Shown here: positions 17,291 to 24,987 of the stretch, in pieces
How positions within the stretch are numbered: the first letter of the stretch is position 1
Layout of the letters: each line of letters begins with the position of its first letter
Assembly (NCBI GenBank): GCA_963728745.1
Contig: CAVSKY010000006.1
Coordinates: 389,015-453,014 of the forward strand
Direction: 5' to 3'
DNA from: an uncultured Chloroflexia bacterium
GTDB lineage: Bacteria; Chloroflexota; Limnocylindria; Limnocylindrales; CSP1-4
DNA: 64,000 bases
Notes under the pieces: generated by a model
The model's database searches: none
What the model saw: the letters and a program-made list of their open reading frames with translations, nothing else
Told to the model about the DNA's origin: nothing
Translations under genes and position numbers: made by a program

Positions 17291-17926
17291 TCACCGCGAC
17301 GACCCCCGTCCCTCCGACGGGGGTCGTCGTGTTTTCTGCGTCGGGTCCGGCAGGTCTGCCGGCGTGTCGATGTCGGTGAGCGTGGCGCCGGCAAGGTCGT
17401 CACGGCGCCAGATCGAGGCAGAGATGACCTTGGCGTCAAGCTCGCCGATCAGCGCTCGCAGGCGTCGCTCGCCGCTCGCGATCAACCGCTCGACCGCGGG
17501 TCGCGCCACGGACGGACGGATCGCCATCGGAAGCGGGCGAGGCCTCGTCTCGTCCGCCAGGACAGCCGCGTCGTGGTCGTCGAGCGCGACGATCAGCCGT
17601 TCGAGGACGGCCGGAACGAGGCCAGGCATATCGGCACCGACGACCACGACCCGATCGACCGTTGGATCCAGGGCCTCCAAACCGGAGGCCAAGCCGGACA
17701 AGGGCCCCTCGAACGGGAGCGCGTCGTGGACGATGGTGACGCCGTCACGGGCGCCTGCGGTAGCCCTCGGTGAGGTCACGACCAGGATGTTGCTCGTCAC
17801 CAACCGCACGGCGTCGATCGCGTGGTCGAGCATCGGCCGGCCGTCGATCGGCTCGACCAGCTTGTCGCGGCCGAACCGAGACGAGCGGCCGCCGGCCAGG
17901 ACGATCGCCGCCGTACGCTCGGTCAT
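17291..17926 (-). CDS. mobA: Molybdenum cofactor guanylyltransferase
   Basis: AAIVLAGGRSSRFGRDKL ... VVVGADMP are the MobA nucleotide-binding signatures. There is a 4-nt overlap with selB. Confidence 0.75.
   Translation of the reverse strand: MTERTAAIVLAGGRSSRFGRDKLVEPIDGRPMLDHAIDAVRLVTSNILVVTSPRATAGARDGVTIVHDALPFEGPLSGLASGLEALDPTVDRVVVVGADMPGLVPAVLERLIVALDDHDAAVLADETRPRPLPMAIRPSVARPAVERLIASGERRLRALIGELDAKVISASIWRRDDLAGATLTDIDTPADLPDPTQKTRRPPSEGRGSSR
17297..17340 (+). terminator. Rho-independent terminator-like hairpin, embedded in the 3' coding end of mobA on the opposite strand
   Basis: CGACGACCCCCGTC-CCTCC-GACGGGGGTCGTCG gives a 14-bp perfect stem. It is followed by TGTTTTCTG. Confidence 0.5.
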
Positions 17927-19686
17927 CGACCGGCGGCGGTGGGCGCCTTCGCTCCCGGGACGTGCCCGGCCGGCGTGCGGCGCAGGATCGCCCGCCGGTC
18001 GAGATCCTCGAGGATGGCCATCACGTACTTGCGGCTGGTCCCGGTGGCGTCGCGCAAGGCGGCAGGCGTCAGCGGCCCCCGCGTGGCCATCGTCAGGGCC
18101 CGTTCGGTCAGGGTCCGGTAGGTGGTGGCTGCGTAGGCCAGGTCCGCCTCGACGACGATGATCCGGCCGCTGCGCTCAAGATCGCGGATGCCTGCGGGCG
18201 AGCACCCAGCGACCCGTGCGGCCTCTGCCAGCGATGGCGGGGCGAGGACGTCGAGCATGGATTCAAGGCGGTCCATGGCGGCGACCATGGCCTGATCGGG
18301 GCCAGCCGGCGCCCGGCCGGCACGCCGTACGACGTCCCCGTCGCGTGCGAGGCGACCGTCGGCGACCAGCCGATCGATGACAGCGTTCGCAGCGGCTGAA
18401 GCGTCGTCGCGGCGGGTGGTCACGGCACGGCGCAGGGCTCGTGCCGCCGCGCTCCGCGCAGTCGATAGCGATGCCTCGCCGGGCACCGCGGCAAGGACCG
18501 CGTCGGCGGCGGCCGCTGTGACGTCCGGTGCCAGCTCTCCGTCCAGCATCCCGTGGAGGTCCAACCGCGCCGCCCGGTCGCCCGCGGCCAGGGCGGCGAC
18601 GCGCTCGGGCGTCTGCCGGCGGCGCGAGACCCCGCGCGCCGGGGTGCTATCGAGCACGACGCCGCCGACCGGCGCCCCCTGCGCTCCGCGGCGCACCACG
18701 AAGCGATCGCCCTGGCGGAGGGCGATCGGCTGACTGAGCCGGAGGATCCCAGCCGGTCGCCCGTCCGGCAGCGCGAGGGCATCGCGGCCGCTGCGGCCGA
18801 TCGTGCCGTCCACCGCTGCGGTCCCTGCGTGCACCCGCCCGCTGGCCCGGTCCCCGACGGGATCGCGGAACGCGACCAGGGCACGCTCCGCCGCGACGAC
18901 CGCCGGATCGGCGGTGAGCACCATCCCGCGATGCAGCTCCCGGGCGTCGATCCCGGCGACGTTCAGGGCGGTCCGACCACCCGTCTCGACGGCGTCGACC
19001 GGCGTCCCGTGGACCTGGATCTCGCGGATCCGTGCCGTCCGATCGCCCGGGACCAGCCTGAGCGTCTCCCCTCGTCTGAGCGGTCCGCCCCGCAAGGTGC
19101 CGGTAACCACCACGCCGCGACCCTTCACGGAGAAGACGCGATCGATCGCAAGGGTCGGTGGTCGAAGGGAAAGGCGGACGCGGTCTCGGAGGTCGATGAG
19201 CGCCTCGCGCAGGGCGTCCACGCCCGCCCCGGTCAACCCTGACGCGGCGACAACCGGCGCGCCGGCCATCGATGTCGCGGCCAGCAACGCGGCAACGTCC
19301 GCCCGAACGGCCTCGACCCGCTCGCGCGGGACCGCGTCGATCTTGTTCACGACCGCGATCGCGCGGCCGATCCCGAGCGCATCGAGCAGCGCGACGTGCT
19401 CGTGCGTTTGCGCGCGGAGTCCATCGTCCGCAGCCACGACGAGCAATGCAGCATCGATCTCGCCGGCACCGACGAGCATGTTGCCGACCAGCTTGTCGTG
19501 CCCCGGCACGTCGACGAAGTCGATCGTCGTGCCGTCGTCGAGATCGAGATGGGCATACCCGACATCGATCGTCATGCCGCGCCGACGCTCCTCGGGGAGG
19601 CGGTCCGCATCGATCCCGGTGAGCGCGCGGAGCAACGTCGTCTTGCCGTGATCGATGTGGCCGGCCGTGCCCACGACGATGGTCAT
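17923..19686 (-). CDS. selB: Selenocysteine-specific translation elongation factor
   Basis: G-domain motifs [17 protein letters not shown] and NKID. It is 587 aa with a long C-terminal winged-helix region. It lies immediately downstream of selA. Confidence 0.85.
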
Positions 19687-21050
19687 CGCCCGGCGAGCGC
19701 GATCCTGACCGTGGCGGCCAACCGCCGATCCTGATCAGGATGGACGGTTCGAAGGTCGAGCAGCACGCGATCGTCCTCGATCCGGCCGATCACCGCCTGG
19801 CGACCGCATCGTCGGATCCGAGCCAGCAGACCGTCGGCGGACGAGCTCGCGACCGCAACGCCGACCGACGGGATCGTCTCGCCAGGAAGGCTGCCGCCGC
19901 CGATGGTGGATGCCATCTCGGCGACTGACGCTGCAGACCCGATCCTGGCTGCAACCCGCTCAGCGCGGGCTCGCAGGGCATCGACCGGCGTCGCGATCAT
20001 GACCCACACAGGGATCTGCGACATGGCCAGGCCAGCCCGGTACAACCCCAACGTCGCCGCCACGCCCAGCAGCGTCGCCTTGTCAGGGCGCATGGCCCGC
20101 GCCAGCGGATCGCGCCGCATCCGGGCAATGAGGTCCCCTCGACCGACGACCAGACCGGCCTGCGGTCCACCGACGAGCTTGTCGCCACTGAACGTGACGA
20201 TGTCGGACCCTATCGCCAGGCGCTCGGCCGGGGTCGGTTCGTGGGCAAGCCCGAACTGCTCGGTCGGGAGCAGTGCCCCTGATCCGAGATCGTCGATGAC
20301 GAACGCGCCGTGTCGATGCGCGAGCTCCGCCACACGGCTGGGATCGGGGGACTCGGTGAAACCGGCCATCGAGAAATTCGACGGGTGCACCCGAAGCACG
20401 GCACGAGCCTTGCCTTCAGCCAGCGGGGCCTCGAAGTCCTCGGCGCGTGTCCGGTTGGTCGTCCCTACCTCGATGAGCTTCGCGCCGACACGCCGGATGA
20501 TGTCCGGGATGCGCACGCCGCCGCCGATCTCGACGAGCTCGCCGCGCGACACGACGACGCCGCCGCGGCCCGCCAGGCCGACGGCCAGCACGAGAGCGGC
20601 CGCGTTGTTGTTCGTGACCAAGGCATCGTCGGCGCCGGTCAGCGCGATGAGGAGCTCCTCGGCGCGTCGATAGCGGTGCCCTCGACGACCGGTCTCCCGA
20701 TCGATCTCCAGCAGCAGGTAGTCGGTCGCACCTGCGGCGTGGATCGAAGCGATCCTGGGCCACGGCGCGCGACCGAGATTGGTATGGACGATCACCCCGG
20801 TCGCATTGATGACGTAGTCATCCTCGAACGGGACCTGTGCGTCCAGCCTTTTGAGGACGTCATCGATGAGATCGCGGACGAGCCGCGGATCGTTCCCCGC
20901 GGCGATCCGCACCCGTTCCTCCTCGATCACCGCACGGGCCGCGTCGACGACAACATCGTGCTGGCGCTCGAAGCCTTCGCGCAGTCGCACCGACGTCAAC
21001 AGGCCGTCGACGCTGGGTGGACGCGGATGCACGACCGGCTTCGACGTCAT
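19683..21050 (-). CDS. selA: L-seryl-tRNA(Sec) selenium transferase
   Basis: Signature FSGDKLVGGPQAGLVVGR with the PLP lysine context. The start is taken as ATG at 21050 behind GGAGGA. This removes the overlap with tRNA-Sec that the track's 21092 start would create. Confidence 0.85.
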   Translation of the reverse strand: MTSKPVVHPRPPSVDGLLTSVRLREGFERQHDVVVDAARAVIEEERVRIAAGNDPRLVRDLIDDVLKRLDAQVPFEDDYVINATGVIVHTNLGRAPWPRIASIHAAGATDYLLLEIDRETGRRGHRYRRAEELLIALTGADDALVTNNNAAALVLAVGLAGRGGVVVSRGELVEIGGGVRIPDIIRRVGAKLIEVGTTNRTRAEDFEAPLAEGKARAVLRVHPSNFSMAGFTESPDPSRVAELAHRHGAFVIDDLGSGALLPTEQFGLAHEPTPAERLAIGSDIVTFSGDKLVGGPQAGLVVGRGDLIARMRRDPLARAMRPDKATLLGVAATLGLYRAGLAMSQIPVWVMIATPVDALRARAERVAARIGSAASVAEMASTIGGGSLPGETIPSVGVAVASSSADGLLARIRRCGRQAVIGRIEDDRVLLDLRTVHPDQDRRLAATVRIALAGR

Positions 21051-21060
21051 CAGTCCTCCG

Positions 21061-21157
21061 TGGCGGGAACGCGTGGGAGTCGAACCCACCACGCCACGCC
21101 GAGCGCGGCGTCACCGGTTTTGAAGACCGGGGAACCCACCGGGGCCCAACCGCTCCC
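21061..21157 (-). tRNA. selC: tRNA-Sec (anticodon TCA)
   Basis: The reverse complement folds with an 8-nt acceptor (7 pairs), a 6-bp D-stem with 4-nt loop, and an anticodon stem-loop CCGGT-CTTCAAA-ACCGG. It also has a long variable arm, T-arm GTGGG-TTCGACT-CCCAC, and genomic CCA. It lies directly upstream of selA. Confidence 0.75.
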
Positions 21158-21213
21158 GCACGGATGGTAATGCGGGGGTCGTGGAATGGCCCGGGCGCAC
21201 CAACCCAGCAAAG

Positions 21214-21283
21214 CCTTCGAAATCGAAGGATCGCGTTCGGCGATGGGTGATCGCCGTGAGAGAAAACCTTCGAAATCGAAGGA
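21214..21283 (+). promoter_or_regulatory. Twin 16-bp perfect palindromes CCTTCGAAATCGAAGG (at 21214-21229 and 21267-21282), 53 bp apart, in the selC/selD divergent region
   Basis: A 17-bp exact direct repeat, CCTTCGAAATCGAAGGA. Each copy is a 7-2-7 inverted repeat. The second copy overlaps the selD ribosome-binding site and start. Confidence 0.4.
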
Positions 21284-21284
21284 G

Positions 21285-22391
21285 ATGCTGGCGGCAATGC
21301 CGCCGGCGGAGCCGGAACGCGGGCCCGCCTATCATCGTCTCGTGGCGACCCTGTCCGACGTCCCGAGCCTGCGGCTCACAAGCCTCACCGATTGCGGCGG
21401 CTGCGCGGCGAAGCTTGGTGCCGACCTGCTCTCCGAGGCGCTCGCAGGACTCGGCGCCGAGGCGGCACCCGACGAGCTCATCGCCGGGCTCCAGCCACCG
21501 GACGACGCCGCGGCCTATCGCGTCAGCGATGACCTCGCGATCATCGGCACGGTCGACTTCTTCCCGCCGCTGGTCGATGACGCGCGGACGTTCGGCGAGA
21601 TCGCGGCCGCGAACGCGATGAGCGACGTCTTCGCGATGGGCGGCCGCGTCCTCTTCGCCCTGTCGATCGCGGCGTTCCCCGAAGAGCTGCCGCGGAACGT
21701 GCTGGCGGAGGTGTTCGGTGGGGCGTCGGACAAGGTCCGCGAAGCCGGCGGGACCCTGGCGGGCGGCCATACGATCCGCGACCCGGAGCCCAAGTACGGG
21801 CTGGCGGTCATCGGCGCCGCGCACCCGAATCGACTCCTGCGCAAGGGTGCGGCCAGACCCGGCGACCAGCTCCTGCTCACCAAGCCGCTCGGCACCGGCC
21901 TGCTGGTGAGCGGCGCGCGAGCGGGCCGGACCGAACCTGCGGACCTCGCCGCGGCCATCGAGGGGATGCGGACCCTCAACCGCGCGGCGGCCGACGTCCT
22001 GGTCGGCCATGGGGTGACGGCTGCGACGGATATCACCGGCTTCGGCCTGCTCGGCCACGGCCTCGAGATGGCGCGCGCATCGGGCGCGCGGCTCATCTTC
22101 GACGCGCGGAGCATCCCGCCGCTGGACGGAGCGCTCGACCTCGCGCGCGCAGGCGTCGAGACCGGCGGTGCCGCGCACAATCGACGATTCGTCGCCGACG
22201 AGCTGGCTGTCGCGGCGGGCGTGCCGGCGGAGCTCGTGACACTCGCCTTCGACCCGCAGACGAGTGGCGGCCTGCTCGCAGCGATCGATCCGGATCGGGT
22301 GGAGGGGGTCGTCGCCGGCCTGCAGGGCGCAGGCGTCGACGTCTGGCGGATCGGCCGCGTGGAGGCGGGCTCGGGCGTCGCGCTGGCCTAG
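21285..22391 (+). CDS. selD: Selenide, water dikinase (selenophosphate synthetase), Cys-type
   Basis: RLTSLTDCGGCAAKLG is the SelD active-site loop with Cys, not Sec. AIR-synthase-related fold motifs are present. The start could be 21285 or 21297. Confidence 0.85.
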   Translation: MLAAMPPAEPERGPAYHRLVATLSDVPSLRLTSLTDCGGCAAKLGADLLSEALAGLGAEAAPDELIAGLQPPDDAAAYRVSDDLAIIGTVDFFPPLVDDARTFGEIAAANAMSDVFAMGGRVLFALSIAAFPEELPRNVLAEVFGGASDKVREAGGTLAGGHTIRDPEPKYGLAVIGAAHPNRLLRKGAARPGDQLLLTKPLGTGLLVSGARAGRTEPADLAAAIEGMRTLNRAAADVLVGHGVTAATDITGFGLLGHGLEMARASGARLIFDARSIPPLDGALDLARAGVETGGAAHNRRFVADELAVAAGVPAELVTLAFDPQTSGGLLAAIDPDRVEGVVAGLQGAGVDVWRIGRVEAGSGVALA

Positions 22392-22978
22392 CGGAGTCGG
22401 ACGTACGCGCCGACGATGGTGGCGCCGATGCTGATCAGCACGGATGGCACGTACTGGAGCAGGAAGGCGTCAAGCGCGAGGGCTGGATAGCCGGTCTCTC
22501 CAGCGGCCTCGGCCATCGCCGCATACCCCAGCAGCTCCCGCCACAGCCCGACCAGCGACAGTGACGCGCCCAGCAGCCCGCCGATCGCGATCCCGGCGAT
22601 CGCGAGCGCGAGGATCCGTGGGCCGCGCTTGATGCCGATCGTCCGGTCGAGCGCCTCGGCGATGATCGTGCCGGCGAAGAAGCCGAGGACGAGCATGAAG
22701 AACCCGAACTGCGCCCCGAAATAGCCCACCACAGCCCCGAGACCCGTGGCGACGGCCAGCCCGATCGCGAGCTGCCTCGTGCTCAGCGACGCAAGGGCAT
22801 CGCGCGACGGCTTGCCGCACGTCCTGCAACGCAGCCCGACCGGACCCTGCATGGAGCAGCGGGTGCAGATCGGTTGATCGCAGCGACCGCAGCGGACCCA
22901 CGTCTCACGGTCCGGATGGCGGTAGCAGTAGAGCGGCGGCGGCTCGCTGAGATCCGCAGTCGCGGCGTCGGTGGTCAT
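22388..22978 (-). CDS. Membrane protein with N-terminal zinc ribbon (CYRHPDRETWVRCGRCDQPICTRC) and glycine-rich TM helices
   Basis: Start is ATG at 22978 behind GAGGGGA. Four cysteines form a ribbon, followed by about 4 TM helices. It is a paralogue of the 30754-31455 gene. Confidence 0.5.
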   Translation of the reverse strand: MTTDAATADLSEPPPLYCYRHPDRETWVRCGRCDQPICTRCSMQGPVGLRCRTCGKPSRDALASLSTRQLAIGLAVATGLGAVVGYFGAQFGFFMLVLGFFAGTIIAEALDRTIGIKRGPRILALAIAGIAIGGLLGASLSLVGLWRELLGYAAMAEAAGETGYPALALDAFLLQYVPSVLISIGATIVGAYVRLR

Positions 22979-23073
22979 GTGTCCCCTCGCATGAACGATG
23001 CGGAGGTTGCCGTTCGAACGGCCCGTCGTCAAGCGGTACACTCGGGCGGTCGTCATCCGCAGGAGTCCACCGA

Positions 23074-24987
23074 GTGGCACGACCCTACGTACGACTGACC
23101 CAGCCCCTCGTGCGCGACGAGAAGGGCGGCGAGCTTCGACCAGCGACCTGGGATGAAGCGCTGGACCGCGTGGTCGCCGGGTTCCAGGCCGCGAGGGCGG
23201 CCCACGGCCCGACGACATTCGGCACCTTCAGCTGTAGCAAGGCGACCAACGAGGTCAACTTCGCGGCACAGAAGTTCAGCCGGGTGGTCCTGGGCAGCAA
23301 CAACATCGACAGCTGCAACCGCACCTGACACGCCCCGAGCGTCGCCGGTCTGGCGACCGTGTTCGGTGCCGGTGGGGGGACCAGCTCATATCGTGAGGTC
23401 GAGGACACCGATCTGATCGTCCTCTGGGGCAGCAATGCCCGCGAGACGCATCCGATCTTCTTCCACCACGTCCTCAAAGCCGTGCACAAGGGAGCGCGGC
23501 TGTATGCGGTCGACCCGCGCCGGACGTCCAGCGCGGAATGGGCCGACACGTGGCTTGGCCTCGACGTGGGCAGCGACATCGCGCTGGCCAATGCCATCGC
23601 CCGCGAGATCATCGCGTCGGGCCTGGAGCATCGCGAGTTCATCGAGCGGGCGACCGCCGACTTCGACGCCTACAAGGCCAAGGTCGAGTCGTACACGCTC
23701 GACTATGCCGAGCGCGAGACGGGCGTCCCGGCCGACGTCATCAAGGAGCTGGCGCACGCGCTGGCGACCGCGCCGCGGGCGATGATCTGCTGGACGTTGG
23801 GGATCACCGAGCACCACAACGCGGTCGACAACGTCCTGTCCCTGATCGACCTCGTCCTGCTCACCGGACACGTCGGTCGCTACGGGAGCGGCGTCAACCC
23901 GCTCCGTGGCCAGAACAACGTCCAGGGCGGCGGCGATATGGGCGCCCTGCCCGATCGTTTGCCTGGCTTCCAGCATGTCGAGAACGACACGCTCCGAGCG
24001 AAGTTCGACGCCGCCTGGGGCGTCACCGTCCCGCCGCAGCGTGGCTGGCACCTGTCGGGCATGTTCGACGCCATGGAACGGGGTGACCTGACCGCCGTGT
24101 ACTGCATCGGCGAGAACCCCGTCCAGTCGGAGGCCGACCAGCACCGCGCCATCCGGCTCCTCGAGGGCCTCGACATGCTCGTCGTCCAGGACCTGTTCCT
24201 GACGAAGACCGCCGAACTGGCGGACGTCGTCCTGCCGGCGAGCGCCGCATGGGCCGAGGGCGAGGGGACGGTCACCAACTCGGAGCGACGCGTCCAACGC
24301 GTCCGCAAAGCGGTCGAGCCGCCTGCGGGTGCCCGGGACGACCTGGCGATCATCTTCGACCTCGCGCGGCGGATGGGCGCCGACTGGGGCGACGCTGGCG
24401 CCGAACGCGTGTGGGACGAGGTCCGCGCGCTGTCGCCCGTCCATGCCGGGATGAGCTACCAGCGCCTCGAGGAGCTCGGCGGCATCCAGTGGCCGTGCTA
24501 CGACGAGGACCATCCCGGCGAGCTATTCCTCCACAGCCGGCTCTGGGAGGATCCGGTCCCGGGCAACCGCGTCCCGTTCGTTCCCGTCGACCACGACCCG
24601 CCGGTCGACAAGCTCACCGACGAGTACCCCATCCGGCTGACGACGGGCCGCCGGCTCGATTCCTACAACACCGGGGTCCAGACGGCCGGGTACACCTCGC
24701 CGCTGCGGCGTGGCGAGTCACTCGACATCTCGCCCGAGGACGCCGAGGCATACGGTCTGGCGGATGGCGAGGTCGTGTGCGCGATCTCGCGGCGCGGGCG
24801 GGTCGAGGTACCGGTCAGGATCGATCCGTCGCTGCGCCCGGGTCTCACGTTCATGACGCTCCATTTCCAGGACGACGTCGCCACGAACCTGCTGACGATC
24901 GACGCCACGGACCCGAAATCCGGCACCGCCGAGTTCAAGGCGACCGCGATCCGGATCGAGAAGCTCGCACAGCCCGTCTCGGCCTGA
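23074..24987 (+). CDS. fdhF: Formate dehydrogenase catalytic subunit (FdhF-like bis-MGD molybdo/tungstoenzyme), selenocysteine-containing, lacking the N-terminal Fe-S domain
   Basis: GTG at 23074 behind AGGAG. The in-frame TGA at 23326-23328 sits inside the conserved FDH active-site block NNIDSCNRT-U-HAPSVAGL. The same reading frame continues through 24987 and is strongly FdhF-like. Confidence 0.85.
23338..23360 (+). promoter_or_regulatory. SECIS-like mRNA hairpin GUCGCC-GGUCU-GGCGAC, 12 nt downstream of the UGA
   Basis: It mirrors the E. coli fdhF SECIS apical stem-loop (GGUCUG loop, encoding VAGL). Confidence 0.6.

Follow-up and report, generated by a model that had tools for sequence, protein, structure and literature searches.

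Between the divergent genes for tRNA-Sec (selC) and selenide, water dikinase (selD), the 64-kb stretch of DNA analysed here (the window) carries twin 16-bp sequences that most probably represent an ordinary type of regulatory site in an unusual location. The twin sequences are real, and we propose that they are operators of an autoregulated MarR-like regulator that was recruited to selC and selD, a reading that we draw from the comparison of related loci and to which we assign a probability of roughly 60%. The proposal combines an invariant dyad within diverging flanks, an A/T centre that can be flipped, the presence of the site both at a marR gene and at a target in the same genome, a matching spacing between paired sites, and a fixed distance to the -10 boxes, which together point to the operator of an autoregulated transcription factor. 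That the small MarR-like regulator directly controls, and probably activates, the tRNA-Sec and selD promoters from about 65 bp upstream is a more tentative suggestion, with the odds somewhat against it.

Exactly two copies of CCTTCGAAATCGAAGG are present in the window, 53 bp apart from start to start, as part of an exact direct repeat of 17 bp (CCTTCGAAATCGAAGGA) that can be extended to 21 nt with 20/21 identity (Table 1). The original prediction had described this repeat correctly, and had rightly placed the first copy in the region between the tRNA-Sec gene on the minus strand and selD on the plus strand. Its description of the 16-mer as a perfect palindrome needs amending, since the two central bases differ in the reverse complement: the sequence is a 7-2-7 interrupted palindrome whose arms, CCTTCGA and TCGAAGG, are exact complements round a 2-nt A/T centre, here a non-symmetric AA. 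As a search pattern, the motif can be written CCTTCGAWWTCGAAGG. No third copy of CCTTCGAAATCGAAGG was found in the window with up to 3 mismatches allowed; dinucleotide-shuffled versions of the window contained on average 0.32 matches at this threshold, and none of 100 shuffles reached the observed count. We also considered a plain 53-bp tandem duplication and rejected it, as only the site and 2-4 flanking bases are repeated and the remainder of both 53-bp units is unrelated.

Table 1. Features of the selC-selD region in the window, and copies of the site in related selC-selD and marR loci.
Locus	Feature	Position	Strand	Details
Window	selB	17923-19686	minus	
Window	selA	19683 to ~21050	minus	
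Window	tRNA-Sec gene (selC)	21061-21157	minus	anticodon TCA; ARAGORN; Rfam RF01852, 72.4 bits
Window	putative selC -10 box	21164-21169	minus	TACCAT; 6 nt upstream of the mature tRNA 5' end; from conservation
Window	site 1	21214-21229		CCTTCGA-AA-TCGAAGG; centre ~-64.5 from putative selC start, ~-120.5 from putative selD start
Window	inner inverted repeat	21239-21255		GGCGAT-GGGTG-ATCGCC; between site 1 and site 2
Window	site 2	21267-21282		CCTTCGA-AA-TCGAAGG; centre ~-67.5 from putative selD start, ~-117.5 from putative selC start
Window	GC-rich inverted repeat	21287-21307		GCTGGCGGC-AAT-GCCGCCGGC; between site 2 and the putative selD promoter; contains non-conserved ATG 21297
Window	putative selD -10 box	21330-21335	plus	TATCAT; 6 nt before the start codon; from conservation
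Window	selD CDS (selenide, water dikinase; Cys form)	21342-22391	plus	GTG start; Pfam AIRS + AIRS_C
L001 (selC-selD)	two copies			52 bp apart; first with TT centre
L002 (selC-selD)	one copy			1 mismatch
L082, L209 (selC-selD)	two copies			80 bp apart
L210, L211, L212 (selC-selD)	one exact copy each			
L081 (selC-selD)	no copy			SelD 90% identical; 13 bp between its -10 boxes
L203 (marR)	sites	9802, 9880		78 bp apart
L204 / L205 (marR)	sites	9801, 9881		80 bp apart
L206-208 (marR)	sites	29, 98		69 bp apart
L213 (marR)	sites	9849, 9902		53 bp apart
L214 (marR)	sites	907, 959		52 bp apart
marR loci	-10 candidate hexamers			TAGAGT, TACGGT, TACCGT, TAGATT, TACTGT

The position of the two sites relative to the promoters depends on where selC and selD transcription starts, and we placed both promoters and starts by conserved hexamers in related loci, using 86 loci for the start codon and -10 box of selD and 42 for the box of tRNA-Sec. 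The closest relatives of the window are uncultured Chloroflexota of the class Limnocylindria. A promoter consensus scan of positions 20900-21600 found no -35/-10 pair of the sigma-70 type. Most SelD homologues are called with a length of 349 aa, as a start at GTG 21342 would give, and in 80 genome loci the tblastn alignments to the protein read from this GTG start from its residue 1. Upstream of selD, nearly all loci have CCTATCATC-N5-[AG]TG in common, and a TANNNT box stands 6-8 nt before the start codon in 76 of the 86 loci (TATCAT in 59, at exactly 6 nt in 64). With TATCAT only 6 nt from the start, a Shine-Dalgarno sequence does not fit in between, as is characteristic of leaderless mRNAs, and the selD mRNA probably begins, without a leader, at GTG 21342. 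With either ATG or GTG as the start codon and no Shine-Dalgarno sequence at those 76 loci, a leaderless selD appears to be the case throughout Limnocylindria. On the other side of the spacer, a TANNNT box is found 3-8 nt before the tRNA-Sec 5' end in 40 of 42 related loci (TACCAT in 37), and with a conserved TACCAT box at a distance of just 5-6 nt, transcription of selC probably starts at or next to the mature 5' end. The tRNA-Sec transcript may thus be without a 5' leader, so that it might need no RNase P processing. Between the two -10 boxes, the related loci have 4-422 bp (median about 40) and the window has 160 bp; the palindromes therefore lie in extra DNA between the divergent promoters.

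These starts bear directly on the claim that the second copy overlaps the selD ribosome-binding site and ATG, which would make the pair a two-operator repressor site of the kind found at E. coli marO, in which one operator would lie in the promoter and the other would block the translation start. The GAAGGAG of copy 2 does stand directly before an in-frame ATG at 21285, and some gene callers report N-terminally extended SelD proteins. However, there is no spacing between GGAG and that ATG; the ATGs at 21285 and 21297 are both missing in the close relatives L001 and L082; the extensions are not conserved past 'AYHR', their only common part, which is the translated -10 box; and in most loci the start codon follows 6 nt after the conserved TATCAT. 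With the real start at GTG 21342, site 2 lies 59 nt upstream and covers neither ribosome-binding site nor start codon, and we consider an operator at the RBS or ATG very improbable. What stands of the two-operator claim is that the sites are operator-like, both by their conservation and by their recurrence at marR genes (see below); the geometry does not, the sites being placed about 65 and 120 bp upstream of the putative starts.

Paired hairpins in a 5' UTR, the other structure that had been suggested, fall away with a leaderless selD, as there would be no transcript to hold them. In a wider form, the pair might be an RNA element within a leader or small RNA that controls selD, either as two local hairpins, each with a 6-bp stem and an AAAU loop, or through pairing of copy 1 with copy 2 into one long hairpin. 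In line with this, positions 21195-21310 fold into a long hairpin of -55 kcal/mol (z = -5.06), the window and L001 lengthen the stem with different flank bases, and the inner inverted repeat, which reads GGCCAT-GGTG-ATGGCC in L001, has one compensatory change relative to the window. Yet any pair of palindromic sites folds so, and both putative promoters point out of the spacer. Neither L082 nor the marR loci show the flank complementarity. They also lack the inner inverted repeat, whose significance is therefore doubtful; the loci have unrelated inner sequences, and the compensatory change is not repeated elsewhere. Four selC-selD loci have only a single site, and the flip of the centre between AA and TT suits a site for a DNA-bound dimer. 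At the gathering threshold, tRNA-Sec was the only Rfam family found in the window; with E-values up to 10 allowed over 21140-21400, all matches other than tRNA-Sec were at chance level (E > 1). We regard an RNA element as improbable. A minus-strand intrinsic terminator at copy 2 was likewise rejected, because the T-run that would follow the hairpin is present in the window only and is missing in L001 and L082.

Conservation of the site at selC-selD loci is strong within a narrow range. Seven of the 86 related loci carry it, all in one clade of close relatives that includes the window; among the 80 genome loci, the motif occurs only in L001 and L002, and the close relatives L081, L082 and L209-L212 were obtained by exact protein look-up. 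The MAGs with selC-selD sites include CAWCEC01 / ERZ25039591 contig_10561 and ERZ25039588 contig_23150. Across the seven site-bearing loci, the pairwise identity is 95% for the 16 columns of the site, as against 51% and 44% for the 30-column flanks. The centre varies between copies (AA, TT or AT) and the arms are unchanged, as expected for a symmetric dimer. The distance to the promoters is also kept: in 8 of 8 site-bearing loci, 43-47 nt separate the selC-proximal site from the -10 box of selC. On the selD side, the distance between proximal site and -10 box is 46-51 nt in L002 and the twin-site loci (47 nt in the window), and 54-60 nt in the remaining loci with a single site. Given four loci with a single site and L081 with none, neither a pair nor the site itself can be essential. 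L211 resembles the window minus one site and a 37-nt inner segment. Conservation at orthologous selD loci, which the original prediction had set as a test, is therefore found in one clade but is absent from most loci.

Such a patchy presence is also what could be expected from a selfish or neutral palindromic repeat, of the REP/REPIN or MITE type, that sits in a hypervariable spacer without a regulatory role. The site is present in no, one or two copies among close relatives, the spacer between the boxes varies widely in length and holds other repeats in other clades, 25-nt inverted arms (80% match) enclose an 87-bp unit, and in one marR locus, L157, the sites stand among tandem repeats. Short intergenic palindrome pairs that can form a long hairpin, with a pair orientation that varies, are also typical of REP doublets, REPINs and BIMEs. 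REPs, however, number tens to hundreds per genome, whereas the search for the motif beyond selD, which had been proposed as a check against a dispersed REP or MITE, showed no dispersal: exact copies in the 1.08 Mb of DNA from Limnocylindria are confined to two types of promoter spacer, selC-selD and pth-marR, with two 1-mismatch copies outside them, and the window has no extra copy. One of these two, at L058:3331, was rejected as a site and read as selA coding sequence (DFEA). Nor do the loci share an interior, as they are 52-70% identical to one another between their sites, and the locus pairs that include the selD spacer of L082 (58-64%) fall within the range of the marR-marR pairs. We therefore rejected a MITE with 25-nt terminal inverted repeats, which has no further copies and no conserved inner sequence; no target-site duplication was seen. 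The 16-mer has been kept at selC-selD loci where its flanks have decayed, it has been retained upstream of marR across 45-100% protein identity, and its distance to the -10 box is fixed. A repeat without function is in our view quite improbable.

A metagenome scan with ANCCTTCGAWWTCGAAGGA returned at least 120 stretches. Among the matches listed, nearly all were single hits attributable to chance, in unrelated contigs with GC contents of 25-65%, and only L130 and L157 were informative; there may be further target loci. Five stretches of about 50% GC, some of them labelled human gut (L097, L110, L156, L171 and L172), contain two exact 16-mers 1.5-1.65 kb apart; these pairs were rejected as a Limnocylindria element, as they are part of a longer duplicated segment, enclose a transporter-like ORF, and are unrelated.

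In L130 and L157, which are contigs of about 70% GC, two and three copies of the site respectively are found upstream of a 150-aa gene that is convergent to ybeY and divergent from pth-mfd. This arrangement is general: across the marR loci studied (L130, L203, L204/L205, L206-208, L157, L213 and L214), 2-3 sites stand upstream of this marR-family gene in 8 of 8 distinct loci fetched, with proteins that are 45-100% identical. The constant presence of the sites upstream of the regulator's own gene points to autoregulation, and the recurrence of the paired architecture at this gene supplies a candidate regulator. A regulator and a target can also be placed in one genome, as P0151, the MarR ortholog of L213, and the twin-site selD locus L001 are on the same contig of 1,069,638 bp, with spacings of 53 bp at marR and 52 bp at selC-selD. 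No regulator gene was found in the window or in the selD loci; from the relative represented by L001 and L213, we infer that the source genome of the window has a marR gene of this type.

Assignment of the candidate to the MarR family is supported by a profile of 13 orthologs, which matched 27 PDB chains over nearly the full length, with a best E-value of 2.8e-6; 24 of these chains are named MarR or MarR/EmrR-family, and none is assigned to another family. The Pfam MarR_2 model scores P0140 at 31.4 bits, versus a cut-off of 27, and two other orthologs below the cut-off. An AlphaFold2 model of the protein is of low confidence (pLDDT 54). Orthologs with site-bearing loci largely keep two segments, AFSD.VRR and DRRTRR, which we read as the recognition helix and the wing. 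No cysteine was seen in the candidate regulator, nor in the members nearest the L130 protein, and a thiol-based redox switch is therefore unlikely. The family has a nearly invariant C-terminal tail, DGLP..TA, that we do not recognise from characterised MarR proteins.

The spacing of the paired sites recurs across loci of both kinds. Spacings of 52-53 bp are found four times within the lineage of the window (in the window, L001, L213 and L214), round unrelated inner sequence, and spacings of 78-80 bp in L082 at selD and in L130, L203 and L204 at marR; in other lineages the spacing is 58-80 bp, out of helical phase. The pairing of sites is probably meaningful. By hand counts, the proximal site stands about 46-47 nt from the marR -10 candidate in L213, L214 and L206, and about 41 nt from it in L130, L203 and L204, a range of ~41-47 nt, similar to the selD distance in the window and L001 (47-48 nt). 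The three sites of L157 (within 1300-1830) lie between two tandem arrays, one of ~29-nt units and one of 18-nt CCGACCGGCTGGTGGCCG units, which have widened their distance from the candidate marR promoter to about 170-240 nt.

Since the assignment of the regulator to the site rests on adjacency, the sites could instead reflect regulation of pth, or the palindrome could bind another protein, either a different regulator or a nucleoid-associated protein, so that its place next to marR would reflect control of pth-mfd or the spacer itself. Conservation and position of a site do not name its binder, the sites are in a divergent spacer shared with pth, and MarR repressors do not typically bind outside the core promoters. 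Against this, the association with marR holds at every distinct marR locus fetched, over a wide range of protein divergence; the distance from the site to the pth -10 box is variable (65-112 nt) where that to the marR -10 candidate, counted by hand, is about 41-47 nt; and the presumed recognition helix and wing are largely conserved alongside an invariant site. We consider a different binder unlikely.

In the model that we favour, that of an autoregulated MarR-like regulator, each CCTTCGA-WW-TCGAAGG unit would be a putative site for a dimeric winged-helix regulator, and the best candidate is the 150-aa MarR-family protein encoded in Limnocylindria by the gene between ybeY and pth-mfd. Most Limnocylindria would transcribe selC and selD from back-to-back promoters that have a conserved -10 box only, with no regulator site between them. 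In the sub-lineage of the window, the spacer has grown to 100-190 bp, with one or two sites inside, each 43-51 nt upstream of a -10 box and centred at about -62 to -72 from the putative start; the marR promoter is apparently similar. Through these sites, the regulator would make the transcription of both genes depend on its own signal.

The direction of this regulation is suggested by the placement of the sites. MarR proteins usually repress from sites over the -35 and -10 boxes, whereas none of the sites here covers a putative -35/-10 region or start; they end 43-60 nt upstream of the putative -10 boxes. A location outside the core promoters, at a fixed distance, leads us to lean towards activation over repression: action from upstream on RNA polymerase, in the manner of class I activators, is given slightly better than even odds, and repression slightly less than even. 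Class I activator sites are known at -61.5 and -71.5 for CRP, and at about -71 for FIS at E. coli tRNA and rRNA promoters. As in those cases, a palindromic dimer site would be placed at a fixed ~60-70 bp upstream of the start, and one of the promoters serves a stable RNA gene; the protein family and the Chloroflexota host are different, and the resemblance is positional only.

Among MarR-family systems, the closest parallel is perhaps sites I and II of E. coli marO, reportedly the autoregulated operator of MarR. Both systems have two similar palindromic sites of ~16-20 bp upstream of the regulator's own gene, a winged-helix dimer of ~150 aa, and an operator that recurs at further target promoters. 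However, the marO sites overlap -35/-10 and the marR RBS, and repress, whereas the sites here are centred at about -62 to -72 and about -120; the additional targets here are a tRNA gene and selD, and binding here is putative. SlyA and RovA offer a second parallel, being MarR-fold regulators with binding sites upstream of core promoters and with the ability to activate and to autoregulate. These proteins mainly counteract H-NS in enterobacteria, whereas we know of no H-NS-like silencing system in the lineage of the window.

If the proposal is correct, the machinery that decodes selenocysteine would here have a transcriptional switch of its own. Bacterial selA, selB, selC and selD are generally treated as constitutive, following work in E. 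coli, and to our knowledge no dedicated transcriptional switch for bacterial selenocysteine decoding is known; the full-text literature searched yielded nothing on such a switch, on MarR control of selD or selC, or on selenocysteine in Limnocylindria. tRNA-Sec and selD would thus apparently be under a specific regulator in a sub-lineage of abundant, uncultured soil Chloroflexota, whose selenocysteine-containing formate dehydrogenase is encoded next door. The control would be a recent gain, in which the twin-operator architecture of the regulator was copied into an otherwise empty spacer. Since the same pair of -10 boxes is found with 0, 1 or 2 sites among close relatives, these loci would offer a view of promoter rewiring in recent evolution.

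Within 23074-23420 of the window, the gene for the formate dehydrogenase alpha subunit has an in-frame TGA (SCNRT*HAPS), a selenocysteine codon, and the sel genes therefore have a local client. Between selD and fdhA, a 276-aa ORF on the minus strand (22388-23218) encodes a CxxH…CxxC…CxxC…CxxC motif and hydrophobic segments; a Pfam match was not found for it, and shorter versions of about 181-222 aa are kept at the same position in relatives. At the marR locus L213, a short GC hairpin, GGCGA-AGGCG-TCGCC, follows the proximal site and is comparable to the GC-rich inverted repeat after site 2 in the window. Selenocysteine loci of other clades have other repeats in their selC-selD spacers (noted in L009, L016, L020, L011, L065, L068 and L070), which may be sites of other regulators: the L009 spacer contains tandem CGCGGCGCGTCT units, and those of L016 and L020 contain two copies each of GAACGCAGTCGG.
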